Of a stretch of 64,000 nt of DNA, positions 18,202 to 57,106 are shown one piece after another (position 1 is the stretch's first letter; each line of letters opens with the position of its first letter). This DNA comes from Promethearchaeota archaeon. GTDB taxonomy: Archaea > Asgardarchaeota > Lokiarchaeia > Sigyniarchaeales > SOKP01. The DNA lies in assembly GCA_019058295.1 (NCBI GenBank), contig JAHPZI010000022.1:1-64000 (forward strand), given 5' to 3'. The position numbers and the translations under genes were made by a program. The notes beneath the pieces were generated by a model. That model was given only the letters and a program-made list of their open reading frames with translations, was not told the origin of the DNA and made no database searches.

Positions 18202-19563
18202 TCAATAATCTACATTAATAACATCCAATTCTTTACAAATTAAGGGGCTTTCAAATATTTCTGCAAAAGAGGGAATTGTCTTACCATTATCTCCATTTAT
18301 TAATTCTTTTATATAGGTTCCTCCCTGTGTTTCAATTATAAACTGGAATAGATTCGGTTTTATCTGTTTAGCTTCTATTTTATAAATAATTTTTTTCCTT
18401 ATTATATCAGCACGTCGATGAGAAACCCTAGTAGGAGTTCTTTGATTAACTTGTTGATTTTCAAATATTTCTTTTAATTCTTTTATATTTTTGTTAAATT
18501 CCTCAAGATTTAATTCTTTTTCGGCTTCTACTAATACTTTGTATGTTTTTCTTGACGTTTCTGCTTTAGATTTAATTCTTATGACTTCTTTTTTGTTGCT
18601 ATATCTTAGATCACAGATTTTTATTTTTCCAGCATTAGTTTGATTAACCCTAGTTTCAATATTATCTAAATCTAAAGTTCTTACTTTTGGACTCTTTAAT
18701 TCAAGAATGAATGGCCTCCCAGTGCCTAACATCCTCACATCAATATCTTCCCGCCCAGCACCATGAAATTTTGAATCTGTCGCTTGGGTTTCTTTAAAAA
18801 ATTCAGGAGTAATTAATTCTTCAACGCTTATCTCATATTGTTTGCCAGAAAAATTACAAATCTCACAACCTTTTCCTTGACAATTTCTGCACATCCAATG
18901 AGTTTGAGGGATGCCTCTAATTAGTTTATTATATCTTCCAGCTATAAAGACAGATTTTATAATTAATTCTATTTCAAAATTTTTAAACCCAATTGAATAT
19001 AAAAAAAGTATATCAGGGTTGCTAAATTCAGCAGGTTTATTTAATTCTGTGGAGATTGTTTTTCCAACAACGCGATTAAAATGGCTTTTAAACGATTCTG
19101 AACTTAAGATATTGAACTCTGCTTTAAATTTATCTTCTCGATTAATTATTTCGGAATCTGGACTTGTACCCACTAAAATACTATTAAACTCGATATTTTT
19201 AACTAATTCTTTTGCTTTATCTATATAGATTTGTAAATTGAGATATATATCATTGCATAAATAACATTCTTTTATCTCATTACATAAGGTATACTCTATT
19301 CCCTCGTTTTCTAATACTTTTTTTGCTGGTATGAATCTAGCATTTTCAGCTAATATACGCAAATTAACAAGAGCAACTTCTTCTTTGTCCTTTTTTCTTG
19401 ATAAATAAAGATCATGATTTTCCATTGTGATTGAAAGAAGTAGAGAGTTACCTCTCTCTATATTTGTCGTAGCAGTTCCCAACAAAGCAAAACATCGACC
19501 AAGGCAATGTGGACAAATATAATATTTCCGATAAATTTCTATAACTTTAGATGAAATATTCAT
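18202..19563 (-). CDS. pus10: tRNA pseudouridine(54/55) synthase Pus10
   Basis: GRYNKL.RGIPQT.W, FHGAGREDIDVRMLG.GRPF, QRTP.RVSHRRAD, GGTYIKEL. Confidence 0.95.
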   Translation of the reverse strand: MNISSKVIEIYRKYYICPHCLGRCFALLGTATTNIERGNSLLLSITMENHDLYLSRKKDKEEVALVNLRILAENARFIPAKKVLENEGIEYTLCNEIKECYLCNDIYLNLQIYIDKAKELVKNIEFNSILVGTSPDSEIINREDKFKAEFNILSSESFKSHFNRVVGKTISTELNKPAEFSNPDILFLYSIGFKNFEIELIIKSVFIAGRYNKLIRGIPQTHWMCRNCQGKGCEICNFSGKQYEISVEELITPEFFKETQATDSKFHGAGREDIDVRMLGTGRPFILELKSPKVRTLDLDNIETRVNQTNAGKIKICDLRYSNKKEVIRIKSKAETSRKTYKVLVEAEKELNLEEFNKNIKELKEIFENQQVNQRTPTRVSHRRADIIRKKIIYKIEAKQIKPNLFQFIIETQGGTYIKELINGDNGKTIPSFAEIFESPLICKELDVINVDY

Positions 19564-19749
19564 AATCCCATTTATGATAATGATAAATAGCTTTTTTTTT
19601 TGTTGATTTTATTTTATTTTAGGAAAAGGGATTAAAAAGATTTTAAAATAATTTATTTTTTTATAACTTAAATTAAAACATATGAATTAAGATATTTTAA
19701 ATAAATTTATATTCCTACAATAGTACTAAACTTGATTAAGTGTTGTAAT

Positions 19750-20064
19750 ATGGCAAAGAAAAAAGGAACGGCAGAAGGTAGTCGAGTAACCGGACACGTG
19801 AAAAATTAAATCGATCTCCGATTAGCTTAATATTGAAATTAAGCATTTAATTCATAATGGTTCGATTACAAAAAAGGCTATGGATTTATTTCCGTAGATG
19901 ACCGGGACGATATTTTTGTCCATTTTTCTAATGTTGAGATGGAGGGTTTTAAGAAGTTAGATATGGGAGACACAGTTGAATTTGAAATTCAAGAAAATTC
20001 AACGAAAGGAAAAGGACCTGAAGCATTAAAAGTAAAAATACTTGTGAAAGATCGTCGATATTAG
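19750..20064 (+). CDS. cold-shock domain protein, two exons (19750-19803 + 19858-20064), 86 aa after splicing
   Basis: exon1 MAKKKGTAEGSRVTGHVK + exon2 WFDYKKGYGFISVDDRDDIFVHFSNVEMEGFKKLDMGDTVEFEI...KGPEALKV...; RNP1 (KGYGFI) and RNP2 (IFVHF) intact; absent from ORF track. Confidence 0.9.
19804..19857 (+). other. putative 54-nt bulge-helix-bulge (BHB) mRNA intron
   Basis: central helix GTGA(19798-801)/TCAT(19852-55), 3-nt bulges AAA(19802-04) and AAT(19856-58), inner helix ATTAAAT/ATTTAAT, exon-exon helix 19786-97/19859-69; canonical cut sites rejoin GTG AAA|TGG TTC. Confidence 0.85.
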
Positions 20065-20185: not shown

Positions 20186-21208
20186 TTAATCTTCTTCGTC
20201 CCAACCAAGATCTTTTAAAACTGAATCTAAAGCTTCAGATTCTTCTTCTAAAATAAATTCAGTTTCATATTCTGTAGCTGCAAATTCTGATTCAAAATCT
20301 GGGGGTGCTAGAGCATCAAGAGAAGGTAATTGATCGAGAGGTGGCAATTCTTCCTTTACAGGTTCGGCAACGACTTCTTCTGTAACTACTTCTTGAGAGG
20401 GTGCTTCTTGAGGGGCTTGTTCATCAACATCCATAGGAGTATAATCTTCAAGTGGAACAGGTGGAACCTCATCTTTATATAATTTAAATTCACTTTTAGT
20501 ATCTTGGTCAATTTCATCAAGAGTTGCTTCAGGGATGGATATAGTTTCAGTATCGTTTTGAGATTTAACCATCATCGATTTGGGAATAGAAACAATATTA
20601 TTAGTTTCTAATTCTTCTACATCCTCAATACCCATTGCTTCCTTTTCTTCTTCATCCCAATCGTCCAAATAGTTTAATAATTCGTCCATGGCTGCTTTAT
20701 CTTCGGCGACAGAAGGTATAACATTTGAAACTTCTTGAGCTTCTTCCTCTACTCTTTTTTGTTCTATTTTTTGTAATTCTTCTTCTTGTTGTAAGAGTGA
20801 AACTTCACTAATTTCGCCTCCAGAAATTAAAATATTCAGTTTTTTTGTCAATTCTCGGAGATACCCTAAATAATATCCTATACGATAAGCGGCACTCAAA
20901 CCGCCAAATACAATATAGTTCTCGTTAATTGCCATTAAAATACTATAACCCGCAGCGTTATGTAAAAGGATTTCCTTCAATGAACCATGTTGAGTAGCGT
21001 CTGAAAGCCTTACTCCTAAATCTATTAATGCCGTACTTGAGGCAGATGTTGTATCAGCATCTAATTCGAATGAAGTGGCTGACGCGACCTTCAACCCTAC
21101 CGTAGAGAGGACTATTAAATTATCTAAATCTGTTTTGGCTTCCTCTATTTTTAAAGCAGTCATCAATTTCTCTCTAACAGCATCCGATAATTCTTCTGAT
21201 ACGGCCAT
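20186..21208 (-). CDS. roadblock/LC7 domain protein with long acidic, Pro-rich disordered tail
   Basis: IVLSTVGLKVAS...SASSTALI.LG..L......GSLKEILL....GYSIL roadblock pattern; E/D/P-rich C-terminal 200 aa. Confidence 0.8.
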   Translation of the reverse strand: MAVSEELSDAVREKLMTALKIEEAKTDLDNLIVLSTVGLKVASATSFELDADTTSASSTALIDLGVRLSDATQHGSLKEILLHNAAGYSILMAINENYIVFGGLSAAYRIGYYLGYLRELTKKLNILISGGEISEVSLLQQEEELQKIEQKRVEEEAQEVSNVIPSVAEDKAAMDELLNYLDDWDEEEKEAMGIEDVEELETNNIVSIPKSMMVKSQNDTETISIPEATLDEIDQDTKSEFKLYKDEVPPVPLEDYTPMDVDEQAPQEAPSQEVVTEEVVAEPVKEELPPLDQLPSLDALAPPDFESEFAATEYETEFILEEESEALDSVLKDLGWDEED

Positions 21209-30302: not shown

Positions 30303-30390
30303 CGCAAGGGGAGGGATTCGAACCCTCGAATGACATTATATCATTATCGGGATAGCAACCCGACGCACTCGACCACTATGCGACCCCTGC
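30303..30390 (-). tRNA. tRNA-Ser(GCT)
   Basis: anticodon arm TCGGG TTGCTAT CCCGA, long variable arm, G73. Confidence 0.93.
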
Positions 30391-30399
30391 TTATATAAG

Positions 30400-30487
30400 C
30401 GCGACGGGTAGGATTTGAACCTACGGTGGTGTTGAGCCACTCCCACTCTCAAGGCGGGCACAATCAACCGAGCTCTGTCACCGTCGC
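30400..30487 (-). tRNA. tRNA-Ser(TGA)
   Basis: CCCGC CTTGAGA GTGGG, long variable arm, G73. Confidence 0.93.
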
Positions 30488-30499
30488 TTTTTTTATGAA

Positions 30500-30583
30500 T
30501 ACGGGAATGCGGATTTGAACCGCAGAACCTCCTTTGAGGAGTGAAGTTTGAATTCACTGCCTTTACCACTCAGCCATTCCCGC
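30500..30583 (-). tRNA. tRNA-Leu(CAA)
   Basis: GTGAA TTCAAAC TTCAC, long variable arm, A73. Confidence 0.92.
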
Positions 30584-30588
30584 TTTTT

Positions 30589-30672
30589 TACAGGGAGAGG
30601 GACTCGAACCCTCGTAGTTCCTGCGAACCCTGAATCCTAAATCCAGTACCTTTGCCGCTTGGTTATCCCTGC
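30589..30672 (-). tRNA. tRNA-Leu(TAG)
   Basis: CTGGA TTTAGGA TTCAG, long variable arm, A73. Confidence 0.92.
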
Positions 30673-30681
30673 TTAATAGAA

Positions 30682-30767
30682 TACAAGGGGAGGGATTTGA
30701 ACCCTCGTACTCCCTGTGGAGAATAGATCTTAAGTCTATCGCTTTTACCTTTCTTAGCTACCCTTGC
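30682..30767 (-). tRNA. tRNA-Leu(TAA)
   Basis: ATAGA CTTAAGA TCTAT, long variable arm, A73. Confidence 0.93.
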
Positions 30768-30777
30768 TTACTTAAAA

Positions 30778-30850
30778 TGGGCTGGAGGGGACTTGAACCC
30801 CCGACCTCCGAGTTAAAAGCCCGTTGCGCTACCTGCTACGCTACCAGCCC
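30778..30850 (-). tRNA. tRNA-Lys(TTT)
   Basis: GGGCTGG/CCAGCCC acceptor; loop CTTTTAA. Confidence 0.93.
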
Positions 30851-30858
30851 ATTTTTGA

Positions 30859-30934
30859 TAGGAGTGGAGAGGATTGAACTCTCGACCACTGCGTTATAAG
30901 CACAGGGCTCTACCAATAACTAAGCTACACTCCT
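30859..30934 (-). tRNA. tRNA-Ile(TAT)
   Basis: CTGTG CTTATAA CGCAG; acceptor AGGAGTG/CACTCCT-A identical to the Ile(GAT) gene in the same array. Confidence 0.9.
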
Positions 30935-30939
30935 ATTGA

Positions 30940-31012
30940 TACACCCGGTAGGATTCGAACCTACATCCCCTCGCTTCGAAGGCGAGTATCCTCTCCATTG
31001 GACTACGGGTGT
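30940..31012 (-). tRNA. tRNA-Arg(TCG)
   Basis: CTCGC CTTCGAA GCGAG; A20 in D loop. Confidence 0.93.
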
Positions 31013-31018
31013 GAAGTT

Positions 31019-31095
31019 TGGTACGGGCGTGTGGATTTGAACCACAATCCATGACTTATGAGACCATAATTCTTACCAGATTAAACTACGCCCGT
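31019..31095 (-). tRNA. tRNA-Met(CAT), probably elongator; CCA encoded
   Basis: ATGGT CTCATAA GTCAT; lacks the three G-C pairs of initiator anticodon stems. Confidence 0.85.
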
Positions 31096-31103
31096 ATATA
31101 TAG

Positions 31104-31177
31104 TGGGGTTGGAAGGATTTGAACCCTCAACCTTTGATTTTGGAGACCACTGCTCTAAACCGCTAAGCTACAACCCC
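31104..31177 (-). tRNA. tRNA-Trp(CCA), intronless
   Basis: loop CTCCAAA; GGGGTTG/CAACCCC-A. Confidence 0.9.
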
Positions 31178-31185
31178 ATATTTAA

Positions 31186-31258
31186 TGAGGGTGGTAGGAT
31201 TCGAACCTACGACCTTTAGATTAGAAGTCTAACACCTTATCCGCTAGGCTACACCCTC
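31186..31258 (-). tRNA. tRNA-Arg(TCT)
   Basis: TTAGA CTTCTAA TCTAA; A20. Confidence 0.93.
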
Positions 31259-31266
31259 ATAATTAA

Positions 31267-31341
31267 TAGGAGAGATCGGATTTGAACCGATGCAGTCTTC
31301 CTCGTAAGGGAAGATCCATAACCAGGCTAGGAGACTCTCCC
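31267..31341 (-). tRNA. tRNA-Val(TAC)
   Basis: CTTCC CTTACGA GGAAG. Confidence 0.88.
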
Positions 31342-31348
31342 AAGATAA

Positions 31349-31422
31349 GGGGCATAGAGGGAATTGAACCCTCGATCCTACGATTAAGAGTCGCATGCTT
31401 TCCCTAACTAAGCCATATGCCC
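31349..31422 (-). tRNA. tRNA-Lys(CTT)
   Basis: TGCGA CTCTTAA TCGTA. Confidence 0.92.
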
Positions 31423-31437
31423 ATAGATGTGCCAATA

Positions 31438-31516
31438 TGGTAGGAGTGGAGAGATTTGAACTCTCGAACCTATAGTTTATCAGACTATCGCTCATTCCAG
31501 GCTGAGCTACACTCCT
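31438..31516 (-). tRNA. tRNA-Ile(GAT); CCA encoded
   Basis: ATAGT CTGATAA ACTAT. Confidence 0.93.
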
Positions 31517-31553
31517 ATTATTAGAAATTGAATTTGATATCTGATAACAAGAG

Positions 31554-31625
31554 TGGGATCAGAGTGACTTGAACACTCGCCCCAAGATCTTCATTCTTGT
31601 GCTCTCCCAGTTGAGCTATGATCCC
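31554..31625 (-). tRNA. tRNA-Phe(GAA)
   Basis: CAAGA ATGAAGA TCTTG. Confidence 0.9.
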
Positions 31626-31687
31626 TAAAATCTCCTCTGATTTTTTGAAGTCCACCTTTGGTCATTCTTAAATGACAATTTTTTCAT
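31625..31687 (-). CDS. putative 20-aa micro-ORF MKKLSFKNDQRWTSKNQRRF inside the left tRNA operon
   Basis: ATG at 31687; TAG overlaps G1 of tRNA-Phe; GAGGTGA 16 nt upstream. Confidence 0.35.
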   Translation of the reverse strand: MKKLSFKNDQRWTSKNQRRF

Positions 31688-31725
31688 TTTTTTTTTTATT
31701 TTTTCACCTCATTTTTTTTATTTTA

Positions 31726-31798
31726 CGCCCCTAGTAGGGTTCGAACCTACACCGCCCGATTAACAGTCGGAGATGCTACCTATTAACACTATAGAGGC
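31726..31798 (-). tRNA. tRNA-Asn(GTT)
   Basis: TCCGA CTGTTAA TCGGG; G73. Confidence 0.93.
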
Positions 31799-31917
31799 AT
31801 GTTTGAAGTTGTTGAATTAAGATAAAAGAAAAAGTATAATGCAAAAGCTAAGAGCTATGAGAATATCTTGGAAGTACAAAAGATAAATAAGTGGATTGTC
31901 AGATTTAAGTAAAGAAT

Positions 31918-32004
31918 TTACTGAATCAAACTGGAGGAGAGAAGATTATTGACGAGATTCACTCGCCACCTTTTCGATCTTAACTTAAATCTAAGTGAGG
32001 CCAT
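31918..32004 (-). CDS. putative leader peptide of left tRNA operon, MASLRFKLRSKRWRVNLVNNLLSSSLIQ (28 aa)
   Basis: ATG 25 nt downstream of a TTTAAATA box; 26/28 residues are amino acids of the downstream tRNAs. Confidence 0.7.
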   Translation of the reverse strand: MASLRFKLRSKRWRVNLVNNLLSSSLIQ

Positions 32005-32029
32005 AATACTATCATTATTATTAATTAAG

Positions 32030-32044
32030 TATTTAAATGTTTTG
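32030..32044 (-). promoter_or_regulatory. BRE/TATA promoter for left tRNA operon
   Basis: minus strand CAAAACA-TTTAAATA, box at 32037-32030. Confidence 0.65.
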
Positions 32045-32068
32045 TTTAAATGGCTAAAACGATTAAAA

Positions 32069-32115
32069 TGGGAAAGAAATGGGTAAGATAGTGAATGTGG
32101 GAAAAGAATGGGTAA
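32069..32115. repeat. 18-bp direct repeat between the divergent promoters
   Basis: TGGGAAAGAAATGGGTAA (32069-86) and TGGGAAAAGAATGGGTAA (32098-115). Confidence 0.75.
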
Positions 32116-32122
32116 TTTTGAA

Positions 32123-32137
32123 CGAAATATTTAAATA
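32123..32137 (+). promoter_or_regulatory. BRE/TATA promoter for right tRNA operon
   Basis: CGAAATA-TTTAAATA, box at 32130-32137. Confidence 0.65.
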
Positions 32138-32162
32138 TTTAATTTGTGATATTATAAATACA

Positions 32163-32252
32163 ATGAGACGTGCAAAAGTGGCAACAACCACCTACCAGGA
32201 TATAGGCGCCCCCGAGCAGGGGCAATATGATAGCGAATGCTATCACCAATAA
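32163..32252 (+). CDS. putative leader peptide of right tRNA operon, MRRAKVATTTYQDIGAPEQGQYDSECYHQ (29 aa)
   Basis: ATG 25 nt downstream of TTTAAATA; 22/29 residues are amino acids of the downstream tRNAs and all ten are present. Confidence 0.7.
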   Translation: MRRAKVATTTYQDIGAPEQGQYDSECYHQ

Positions 32253-32390
32253 AAAATTTTACCCGTCTCTATTGATTTCCTTATTCTTTCCTTAGTTTTC
32301 CTAACCTTGATCGCCGTTTTCTATATACTTTAAAATCCATTTATCACGTTACTTATTTTTTCAGAAAACGGGTAAAAGCTTCATAATGAA

Positions 32391-32463
32391 GGACTGTGTA
32401 GTGTAATGGCATGCATTGAAGTTTGTGAATCTTCAGGAGGTGGTTCGATTCCGCCCACAGTCC
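32391..32463 (+). tRNA. tRNA-His(GTG)
   Basis: encoded G-1:C73, loop TTGTGAA. Confidence 0.88.
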
Positions 32464-32497
32464 TTCTTTCATAAATATAACGCATAGAAAATAAAAA

Positions 32498-32571
32498 GGG
32501 GCTGTAATATCAATCGGAAGATACTTGGTGTTGCATACCAAGGGTTGTAGGTTCAAGTCCTACCAGCTCCA
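32498..32571 (+). tRNA. tRNA-Ala(TGC)
   Basis: G3.U70, loop GTTGCAT, A73. Confidence 0.9.
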
Positions 32572-32578
32572 TAAAAAT

Positions 32579-32651
32579 ACTCCCGTAGTGTAGAGGACAA
32601 GCACTCCAAGCCTTGGACTTGGTAACGTCGGTTCGAATCCGTCCGGGAGTA
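32579..32651 (+). tRNA. tRNA-Gln(TTG)
   Basis: A1-U72; CCAAG CCTTGGA CTTGG (C33). Confidence 0.85.
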
Positions 32652-32668
32652 GTAATTTCATTGGAATT

Positions 32669-32742
32669 CTTGCTGTAGCTCAGACAGGTAGAGCAGGGGA
32701 CTGTAGATCCTTGGAGCGGAGGTTCAAATCCTCCCAGCAAGA
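32669..32742 (+). tRNA. tRNA-Tyr(GTA), intronless
   Basis: C1-G72, short variable loop, GGGGA CTGTAGA TCCTT. Confidence 0.93.
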
Positions 32743-32751
32743 CTAAGAAGC

Positions 32752-32826
32752 GGGGCACTAGTATAGTGGCTAGTATTCGCGACCGTCTATCGTGAGAAGG
32801 GGGATCGATACCCCCGTGCTCCGCCA
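32752..32826 (+). tRNA. tRNA-Asp(GTC), atypical; CCA encoded
   Basis: CGCGA CCGTCTA TCGTG, G73; carries G3.U70, C33, U37, A54. Confidence 0.82.
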
Positions 32827-32847
32827 AAAAGCATTGGAAATAATCGT

Positions 32848-32922
32848 GCGGGATTCATCTAGCGGTCAGGATCATCGCCTTCCAAGTGATTCACGGGTGT
32901 TCAAATCGCCCATCCCGCACCA
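32848..32922 (+). tRNA. tRNA-Gly(TCC); CCA encoded
   Basis: GCG/CGC-A acceptor end; ATCGC CTTCCAA GTGAT. Confidence 0.92.
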
Positions 32923-32927
32923 ATAAA

Positions 32928-33005
32928 GGCACTGTGGCCAAGTTTGGACAAGGCAGCTTCCTTGTAAGTAGCCGAGCGGGGGTTCGAATCCTCCCAGTGC
33001 CTCCA
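32928..33005 (+). tRNA. tRNA-Thr(TGT); CCA encoded
   Basis: loop CTTGTAA; GGCACTG/CAGTGCC-U. Confidence 0.85.
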
Positions 33006-33014
33006 GTAAAATAG

Positions 33015-33090
33015 GCATGCGTGGCTGAAAAGTTGAGGCGGGAGACTGCAGATCTCCTCTATGCAGGTGCAAGTCCTGCCGCGTGCTCCA
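33015..33090 (+). tRNA. tRNA-Cys(GCA); CCA encoded
   Basis: GGAGA CTGCAGA TCTCC; U73; T loop TGCAAGT. Confidence 0.9.
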
Positions 33091-33095
33091 ATCAA

Positions 33096-33170
33096 GCCCC
33101 TGTCATCTAGTAAGGTCAAGGATCCATGATTCTCAATCATGAAACGCAGATTCAAATTCTGCCAGGGGTA
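33096..33170 (+). tRNA. tRNA-Glu(CTC)
   Basis: CATGA TTCTCAA TCATG. Confidence 0.9.
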
Positions 33171-33175
33171 TAAAT

Positions 33176-33250
33176 GCTTCCATGGTGTAGCTAGGTCAAG
33201 CATCGTAGGTTTTCACCCTGCGGACTCGGGTTCGAATCCCGATGGAAGCA
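33176..33250 (+). tRNA. tRNA-Glu(TTC)
   Basis: GTAGG TTTTCAC CCTGC. Confidence 0.93.
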
Positions 33251-33260
33251 CTCATTAAAT

Positions 33261-33334
33261 GGGAGGGTAATCTAGCATGGAAGGATCCTCGCTTTGGAAG
33301 CGAGATGTCGGGAGTTCAAATCTCCTCTCTCCCA
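33261..33334 (+). tRNA. tRNA-Pro(TGG)
   Basis: GGG/CCC-A acceptor end; CTCGC TTTGGAA GCGAG. Confidence 0.9.
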
Positions 33335-55807: not shown

Positions 55808-57106
55808 TTATATTTTGTAAACCTCTCCTATTTCTGGAGCAACAGAACTATAAGATTTTTTTGCCATCTCGTTTGCTAAAGTAGTAGTAGCTTCTTTATC
55901 TCCGTGAATACAAAAGATAAATTTTGAATCATCACGAAATCTTAAATCTTCAATGTATTGGCGAAGATGAGCACCGTCAGCATGACTTGAGAAGTCAAAA
56001 TAATCGTAATCGCATTTAGCTTCAATTTTAAAATCTTCCATATATCCTCGTCTATATTTTTCCTTAAATTCAATAACTCCATTATCTAAAAGACTTCTTC
56101 CAGGGGATCCTTCAACTTGGTATCCAATTAAATAAATAGCTGAATTTGGATCTTTTAAAAAAGATTTTACAAATTCAATAGCGGCACCCCCTTTTAACAT
56201 ACCAGAAGGAGCTATAATCACTCCATTAGATTTCTTTGCTATATTTCTTCCCTTTCTTGATAAAAATTGAGCTTTATTTAGTGCTTTTCTATACATTTTT
56301 ATATTCTTAAGAGATTCAGGAAAATTTAATAAAAGAGTAGATATTTTTCTTGCCAATCCATCAATAAAGATTTTGCCCTCATAACCATATTTTTGTAGTA
56401 TTAATAAGGCTTCTTGAGAACGAGCCACTCCAAAAGCAGGAACAAGAACTTTTCCACCGTTTTCAGTTATATCTATTATATTTTCTGCAAAATTTTTCTC
56501 AAGATCCTCTCTACTTGGATGATTTCTAAGAGTATATGTACTTTCAGTAATTAAAGCATCAATTTCTGGTATAAAAGAAGAGCTTGTCGGATTAACTAAA
56601 TTTGTTATTTGATTATTAATATCTCCTGTATATAAAATTATCTTATTATCTACTTCTATTAAAATTGAAACACTTCCAGGGATATGCCCAGCATTAATAA
56701 ATGAGATATAAAAATCTTCACTTATTTTTTGACGCACTCCATTCTCTAAAAAGCGTGTATATTGCATCATTTTATTTAAATCTTTTAACCCAAAAGGGTA
56801 TGCATAATTTGATATTCTTATCATATCTCTTATAAGAATTTCAGTTATTTCTAGTGATACAGCATTAGTGAAGAGTGGTACAGAATTATTTTTAAAAATA
56901 AATGGCAATGCTCCTGAATGATCTATATGGCAATGGGTTAGAGCGATAGCTTTTAAATTACTATAATCAAAATCAAGAGGAAGTCTTTCCTTGCCTCGAA
57001 AACGAATTCCATAGTCAATGACACATTTTTCTTGGTTTTTAGACTCAATTAAAACGCCAGATCGACCAACTTCTCTGCAACCACCTAAAAATGTAATTTT
57101 TACCAT
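55808..57106 (-). CDS. beta-CASP metallo-beta-lactamase ribonuclease (aCPSF2-like)
   Basis: LGGCREVGRS, HCHIDH, AGHIPGS, TGD, SSHAD, IHGD; no KH domains. Confidence 0.9.
   Translation of the reverse strand: MVKITFLGGCREVGRSGVLIESKNQEKCVIDYGIRFRGKERLPLDFDYSNLKAIALTHCHIDHSGALPFIFKNNSVPLFTNAVSLEITEILIRDMIRISNYAYPFGLKDLNKMMQYTRFLENGVRQKISEDFYISFINAGHIPGSVSILIEVDNKIILYTGDINNQITNLVNPTSSSFIPEIDALITESTYTLRNHPSREDLEKNFAENIIDITENGGKVLVPAFGVARSQEALLILQKYGYEGKIFIDGLARKISTLLLNFPESLKNIKMYRKALNKAQFLSRKGRNIAKKSNGVIIAPSGMLKGGAAIEFVKSFLKDPNSAIYLIGYQVEGSPGRSLLDNGVIEFKEKYRRGYMEDFKIEAKCDYDYFDFSSHADGAHLRQYIEDLRFRDDSKFIFCIHGDKEATTTLANEMAKKSYSSVAPEIGEVYKI

Follow-up and report, generated by a model that had tools for sequence, protein, structure and literature searches.

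A probable bulge-helix-bulge intron within the coding sequence of an Asgard cold-shock domain gene

How can a cold-shock gene yield its protein when its reading frame ends after 19 amino acids (aa) and the remainder of its domain lies beyond a 54-nucleotide (nt) insert? The question is raised by csp, a cold-shock domain (CSD) gene on the plus strand at 19750-20064 of a 64,000-nt stretch of DNA from a Promethearchaeota archaeon (assembly GCA_019058295.1, contig JAHPZI010000022.1, positions 1 to 64,000; hereafter the window). Very probably the coding sequence is interrupted at 19804-19857 by an archaeal bulge-helix-bulge (BHB, tRNA-type) intron. A sequence-only reading of this DNA had proposed a BHB intron in an Asgard cold-shock mRNA, removed by EndA and RtcB-type enzymes, and this proposal now has strong comparative support from nine orthologs, a shared cut rule and compensatory changes. 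The genome to which the window belongs, G000 in the comparisons below, is an assembly that is 79% complete and has 31% GC.

The split gene and the fold of its insert

Three segments make up the gene:

19750-19803, plus strand: exon 1 of csp, ATG plus 17 codons, ending T-G-H-V-K and reading MAKKKGTAEGSRVTGHVK
19804-19857, plus strand: putative intron, 54 nt, containing an in-frame stop (TAA, 19807-19809); occurs once in the genome
19858-20064, plus strand: exon 2 of csp, 68 codons plus TAG, the remainder of the cold-shock domain

Read without splicing, the frame passes from exon 1 through a single N into the TAA at 19807-19809. Exon 2 starts directly 3′ of another TAA and reads WFDYKKGYGFISV...KDRRY-stop, beginning WFDYKKGYGF and ending in DRRY and the stop codon. 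On its own it matches the Pfam CSD profile PF00313 over profile positions 7-64 of 66 (E 2.3e-21, 75.9 bits, cut-off 27), with the RNP1 and RNP2 motifs present as KGYGFI and VFVHFS. Absent from exon 2 is the first strand of the domain (G-x-V-K; here GHVK), which is supplied by the end of exon 1, and in intronless csp orthologs the motif G-[HFY]-V-K stands immediately 5′ of WFD. Joining 19803 to 19858 gives GTG AAA^TGG TTC (the caret marks the junction) and an 86-aa CSD protein that is collinear with the intronless orthologs.

The boundaries of the insert fold into the following elements, all on the plus strand:

19791-19797: outer (exon-exon) helix, 5′ strand, made up of CGGAC, one bulged A and C; partner 19859-19864
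19798-19801: exon strand H of the central BHB helix, GUGA; 4 of 4 pairs with 19852-19855
19802-19804: 5′ bulge AAA; predicted cut between 19803 and 19804
19805-19851: inner (intron) helix h′, AUUAAAU (19805-19811) with AUUUAAU (19845-19851), 7 bp; encloses hairpins 1 and 2
19809-19813 with 19819-19823: hairpin 1, AAUCG/CGAUU, in the minimum free energy (MFE) fold
19825-19831 with 19838-19844: hairpin 2, GCUUAAU/AUUAAGC, in the MFE fold
19852-19855: intron strand H′ of the central BHB helix, UCAU; pairs with GUGA, one G.U among the 4 pairs
19856-19858: 3′ bulge AAU; predicted cut between 19857 and 19858

Archaeal splicing endonuclease cuts between the second and third bulge residue (PMC2738675), and this rule applied to both csp bulges restores the frame. 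The MFE fold of the insert region has z = -2.5, with 4 of 200 shuffles folding equally well. Hairpin 1 shares 3 nt with the 7-bp inner helix, so the two are partly mutually exclusive, the inner helix being reduced to 4 bp when hairpin 1 forms, and a fold constrained to the BHB lies 1.0 kcal/mol above the free MFE (-20.5 versus -21.5). In the outer helix a single pair, C19797:G19859, abuts the 3′ bulge and is followed by a bulged A and then 5 bp (CGGAC/GUUCG). The sequence-only reading had given the insert coordinates and the 19-aa unspliced frame, the two internal hairpins, and the cut after the second bulge nucleotide with its 86-aa product, and all of these agree with our analysis. Its description of the BHB as textbook is right for the 4-bp helix, the 3-nt bulges and the 7-bp inner helix and too generous for the outer helix, with its 1 bp next to the bulge.

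Other classes of insert were also considered. Group I, group II and spliceosomal introns were rejected, as inserts of 29-54 nt are too short for a ribozyme core and the boundaries read AA^A...AA^U; an Rfam search at the csp locus returned no match. A mobile or repeat element was likewise set aside, the 54-nt intron having no second copy in the genome.

Inserts at two sites in related genomes

A protein search across 135 species genomes of the same Asgard family found a csp ortholog in 76, and all 76 loci were inspected individually (75 assessable, 1 masked). The Asgard host suggested by the sequence-only reading is borne out by homologs and near-identical loci labelled Promethearchaeota, Hodarchaeota and similar. 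Inserts of 29, 30, 31, 53 or 54 nt are carried by 9 of the 76 orthologs, whereas 66 of the 75 assessable ones have no intron. The inserts occupy two sites:

Site 1 (VK^WF): G000, G005 and G007, 54 or 53 nt
Site 1 (VK^WF): G002 and G006, 30 nt
Site 1 (VK^WF): G024, of another genus, 30 nt
Site 2 (R-K^G; after WFDxR, within the Lys codon): G023, G011 and G030, with 30, 29 and 31 nt respectively

The introns of G005 and G007 are homologous 53-nt sequences, identical to the G000 intron at 47-48 of 54 positions. In all nine csp orthologs the conserved protein is recovered by a cut after the second bulge base, as GxVK^WFD at site 1 and DxRK^GYGF at site 2. Inserts of 29, 31 and 53 nt are not multiples of three, and read-through therefore cannot rescue these genes, which would be frameshifted unless spliced.

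The central helix varies between lineages while remaining paired. Site-1 helices (H/H′) are GUGA/UCAU, GUGA/UCAC and GUAA/UUAU. The H′ strand is UCAC in G005, G007, G002 and G006, which replaces the G.U pair of the window with G-C, and in the particular case of G024 an H′ of UUAU stands opposite the exon sequence GUAA, a compensatory change. Site-2 helices are UCGU/GCGA, CCGC/GCGG and CCAG/CUGG. Each of these six distinct csp combinations is fully paired, the intron strand of the helix tracking the synonymous codon choice on the exon strand, and when H and H′ were cross-paired between lineages with different H, 4 of 4 pairs formed in only 5 of 50 cases. We further compared registers across ten inserts, namely the nine csp introns and the rtcB intron of G006 described below. 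The frame-restoring register pairs 4 of 4 in all ten, and sliding the 3′ partner by 1-3 nt either way never does (0-3 pairs), so the BHB match goes beyond chance. The sequence-only reading had suggested looking for the same insertion site with covarying pairs in Asgard relatives, and this is what the nine orthologs provide, at two sites.

Divergence within the gene is uneven. In exon 2, G002 and G006 are separated by 7 synonymous codon changes and a single nonsynonymous one. The G000, G005 and G007 sequences show 0-1 differences per 207 nt of exon 2 and 6-7 per 54 nt of intron, and the exon-2 protein is 100% identical in G005 and G007. These comparisons indicate that exon 2 is under purifying selection and that the intron interior diverges faster. 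The same intron is present in independently assembled metagenome-assembled genomes (MAGs) from different samples, SDNY01000136 (AMARA_1S) and SDNM01000093 (TEKIR_6S), and the insert is therefore not an assembly artefact. An artefact and a pseudogene were among the outcomes that the sequence-only reading had raised against itself; independent MAGs answer the former, and exon selection together with a conserved BHB the latter.

The csp loci could be compared by position through a divergent neighbour, which lies outside the intron system:

18202-19563, minus strand: Pus10, with Pfam Pus10_C and Pus10_THUMP_arc; synteny anchor

Of 21 related csp loci, 20 have Pus10 as a neighbour, as do all loci with enough flank, so we treat the csp loci as positional orthologs. 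In a Pus10 tree (built without G005, where Pus10 is truncated), the site-1 carriers of genus g1, G000, G007, G002 and G006, form one clade with 100/99 support, apart from their intronless genus-mates. G024 falls elsewhere, with the site-2 genus, a placement that implies either that site 1 gained an intron twice or that an old intron was lost many times.

Site-2 introns are not adjoined by an outer helix. They fit relaxed HBh′-type motifs, a class reportedly accepted by (alpha-beta)2 EndA (PMC5829648). The site-2 intron of G030 (locus L022) lies 1 nt upstream relative to those of G011 and G023 (L021, L020), in phase 1 rather than phase 2 of the Lys codon, and its Arg codon is AGA, not CGN; either intron sliding or independent insertion would account for the offset. 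The csp gene of G023 (L020:1400-1475) has no in-frame ATG, GTG or TTG before GFVKWF, and a nearby ATG behind GGAGG is in the +1 frame. The gene may use a non-canonical start or contain another small interruption, or there may be a sequencing error.

Scanning metagenome contigs by profile returned nine Asgard-type csp loci and no further intron variants among them: seven are plainly intronless, L110 has a deletion without an insert and L111 lies at a contig edge. L110 (Ga0209636_10046254) reads MPKSVKGYGF... without the VKWFDYK segment, a pattern that resembles deletion between the two KGY repeats more than it does an intron. Four intronless csp orthologs of genus g11 (L047, L075, L082 and L090, from G085, G068, G083 and G072) have 1-2 scattered in-frame stops and could be pseudogenes or sequencing errors.

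On its other flank csp is followed by a gene for 340 aa (20186-21208, minus strand) without a Pfam match. Upstream of csp, about 60-100 nt from its start, there is an AT-rich conserved element at 19634-19665 that reads AAAAATTTTAAAA, a few bases, then TTTATTTTTCTAT. Most csp orthologs have an equivalent element (L008, L010, L012-L016, L039-L090), which is probably the promoter plus the beginning of a long 5′ leader.

Splicing enzymes and other split protein genes

We infer from the sequences that cleavage and ligation occur in the cell. In the pre-mRNA, the end of exon 1 (GUGA) would pair with the end of the intron (UCAU), presenting two 3-nt bulges on opposite strands, flanked by the intron helix and the imperfect exon-exon helix. 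A heteromeric EndA, composed of one catalytic and one non-catalytic paralog, would cut after the second base of each bulge, and an RtcB-type ligase would join 19803 to 19858. The joined mRNA would encode the intact 86-aa CSD protein, and the intron would be released, probably as a circle.

Two EndA paralogs of about 200 aa each are present in G000, around C1:121142 and C26:58847, both above the Pfam cut-off; the catalytic residues Tyr/His/Lys are all present in one, and the His is missing from the other. Asgard EndA is reportedly an (alpha-beta)2 enzyme with an L1 loop for relaxed motifs (PMC5829648). RtcB was found in 10 of the 10 related genomes that were searched for it. ARAGORN called 10 of the 44 tRNAs of G000 intron-bearing, with tRNA introns of 13-54 nt. 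Elsewhere in the window, at 30303-33334, Rfam identifies 26 tRNA genes packed in two back-to-back clusters.

Other protein genes of the lineage are split in the same manner. On contig C30 of G000 (minus strand, intron from near 126724), the uL11 gene contains a 30-nt insert with an internal TAA and a strict BHB (outer helix 7 bp, inner 6 bp), and removal restores GPPIGPV^VGPTGINIKD. The Sec61beta gene on the same contig (minus strand, intron from near 56110) has a 32-nt insert with a strict BHB (outer 9 bp, inner 6 bp). Its removal joins PLGGAGL^MRFFED, the Pfam match beginning exactly at exon 2. In G006, rtcB is split by a 29-nt strict BHB (L037:459-487, equivalent to G006:C13:33458-33486), and the same split is found in G002:C3:15844-17180. 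This intron has the helix UUGG/CCAA, bulges AU^A and AA^A and an inner helix of 8-9 bp, and its removal restores GGVGY^DINCGCR. If the rtcB split is right, the mRNA for the ligase would need ligase activity to be made.

We also carried out an ab initio census of G000, requiring 4 of 4 pairs in H, inner and outer helices of at least 4 and 1 bp respectively, and restoration of an open reading frame (ORF). BHB motif candidates numbered 307,025 and 'restored ORFs' ran to thousands. Just as many came from frame-shifted controls, so the census has no discriminating power in this AT-rich genome. The strictest setting yielded 97 against a control mean of 79, a modest excess, from which just uL11 and Sec61beta were picked out by eye. 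The genome-wide BHB scan proposed by the sequence-only reading yielded these two genes at the strictest setting, and under looser criteria it did no better than controls. A further gene, uS11 (G000:C1:158644-159027, minus strand), has an internal TAA and reads …SSPYAAIK-stop-FISNSLLKQCGFR…. The strict BHB scan at uS11 gave no frame-restoring BHB, and a relaxed motif may be needed. The N-terminus of PFK is another candidate for a split.

Competing explanations and known systems

Several points weigh against a BHB intron that is spliced in the cell. The outer helix is imperfect in the window and nearly absent at the site-2 introns, which makes the motif relaxed (HBh′-like) rather than strict, and the unconstrained MFE fold has a 4x4 internal loop in place of two bulges. 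RtcB was not found in G000, whose assembly is 79% complete. The genome has two further csp paralogs, both intronless and intact, given which the split copy could in principle be dispensable. Searching JGI metagenome contigs with the exact spliced-junction pattern gave 0 matches, and no spliced-form protein for any of the nine intron-bearing genes was found among 5.8 billion proteins. The lineage may simply be missing from such collections, and MAG DNA seems to be the only form in which it has been sampled.

One possible explanation along these lines is that csp is a decaying pseudogene, one of three csp paralogs having been disrupted by a short insertion whose BHB-like fold arose by chance from AT-rich sequence. 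The two intact paralogs, the great abundance of loose BHB-like motifs in a 31%-GC genome and the in-frame stops of the g11 orthologs would all agree with it. We regard it as very improbable all the same, since exon 2 of the intron-bearing genes carries the signature of purifying selection given above, the insert has been kept in five species of one clade (four in the Pus10 tree plus G005) and occurs in four further species, and the exact cut rule holds in nine of nine with compensatory changes, the exons having no other lesions. Programmed ribosome hopping over the insert without RNA splicing, as in phage T4 gene 60, is the least credible of the alternatives. A stop lies one codon past the putative take-off codon and the structured gap of about 50 nt is superficially like that of gene 60, but TGG is not preceded by a landing codon that matches the take-off AAA (the sequence there is ...CAUAA in the window and ...CACUC in G002). 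Moreover, the 29-31-nt site-2 inserts, with different flanking codons, obey the BHB rule without matched take-off and landing pairs, and the same motif splits uL11, Sec61beta and rtcB.

A different kind of alternative accepts the BHB intron and holds that temperature, or limiting EndA or RtcB, controls its removal, which would gate production of the cold-shock protein. Splicing-gated, temperature-dependent expression had been put forward in the sequence-only reading, and the host gene is indeed a stress-type RNA chaperone. Under a nearest-neighbour model the central helix of the window sequence becomes more probable with warming, with values of 0.01 at 4 C and 0.51 at 37 C. This modelled trend is opposite to cold induction, however, and is not common to the orthologs, for which the probability stays near 0.9 whatever the temperature in G002 and is close to 0 in G024. 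In addition, most assessable orthologs do without the intron, and like introns occur in constitutive or housekeeping genes (uL11, Sec61beta, rtcB). We therefore find regulated removal very unlikely, if somewhat less so than decay of the gene, and the csp intron is best regarded as belonging to a population of mini-introns in the protein genes of this lineage, rather than as a regulatory device specific to csp.

The closest known parallel to the BHB intron of csp is the cbf5 pre-mRNA of Crenarchaeota, which contains a coding-sequence BHB intron (Watanabe 2002; Yoshinari 2006; Yokobori 2009, PMC2738675). Much like csp, cbf5 has short coding-sequence introns with an often relaxed BHB that is cleaved between bulge residues 2 and 3, requires a hetero-oligomeric EndA, and shows a patchy distribution among related species that implies gain and loss. 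The host gene and the phylum are different, csp being a gene for a cold-shock domain protein in Asgard archaea. Unlike cbf5, csp has two separate insertion sites in one small gene, and its intron is one of several mRNA introns in the lineage (uL11, Sec61beta, rtcB). cDNA and in vitro cleavage have demonstrated splicing of cbf5, that of csp being deduced from comparison of genomes. The literature that we searched documents coding-sequence BHB introns for crenarchaeal cbf5 only, the 2009 paper stating that none besides had been confirmed, and it contained no report of such introns in a cold-shock gene or any other protein-coding gene of Asgard archaea.

Archaeal tRNA and rRNA introns share with csp the 4-bp helix, the two 3-nt bulges, the size range and the enzymes; csp differs in that the substrate is an mRNA and the reading frame is restored to the exact nucleotide. 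Many non-canonical tRNA introns are known in Asgard archaea (PMC5829648; bioRxiv 10.64898/2026.10.13.758758), and the latter preprint, from 2026, leaves mRNAs unmentioned. Schwarz et al. 2020 (PMC7714728) reported BHB-dependent processing in an mRNA 5′ untranslated region of Haloferax volcanii, which resembles csp in that EndA acts on an mRNA. The site described there, in contrast to csp, is in untranslated sequence, with no coding sequence interrupted and no protein motif rebuilt. Analogous to HAC1/XBP1 in eukaryotes, the csp mRNA would be cut and rejoined without a spliceosome and, as with metazoan XBP1, ligated by an RtcB-family enzyme. The nuclease of HAC1/XBP1 is Ire1 and not tRNA splicing endonuclease, and its cleavage sites are stem-loops rather than a BHB. 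HAC1/XBP1 splicing is moreover a demonstrated stress switch, and the parallel drawn in the sequence-only reading extends to the ligation chemistry and stops short of any demonstrated regulation.

A bolder proposal, which we offer tentatively and regard as rather doubtful, is that this family carries actively turning-over EndA-type mini-introns in protein genes, inserting repeatedly and independently. Recurrent insertion is suggested by two sites within a gene of 86 codons, by use of the same site in two distant genera and by an rtcB split in two species. If true, intron gain in mRNAs would have a prokaryotic precedent among the closest relatives of eukaryotes, and so would genes whose expression depends on RNA being cut and rejoined, including a self-referential loop for RtcB.

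There are also consequences for annotation, since pipelines truncate or miss BHB-split genes. One example is P0010, a 74-aa NCBI protein of the G002-type gene (compared with L007), which consists of exon 2 only with three extra residues from intron sequence. Truncated or missed genes will in turn bias completeness estimates and metabolic reconstructions of Asgard MAGs. More broadly, csp combines two intron sites with a clear presence/absence polymorphism at a syntenic locus, beside split ribosomal, translocon and ligase genes. EndA-type mRNA splicing is thereby implicated in the closest archaeal relatives of eukaryotes, and the gain and loss of introns in protein genes before the spliceosome becomes a testable question.
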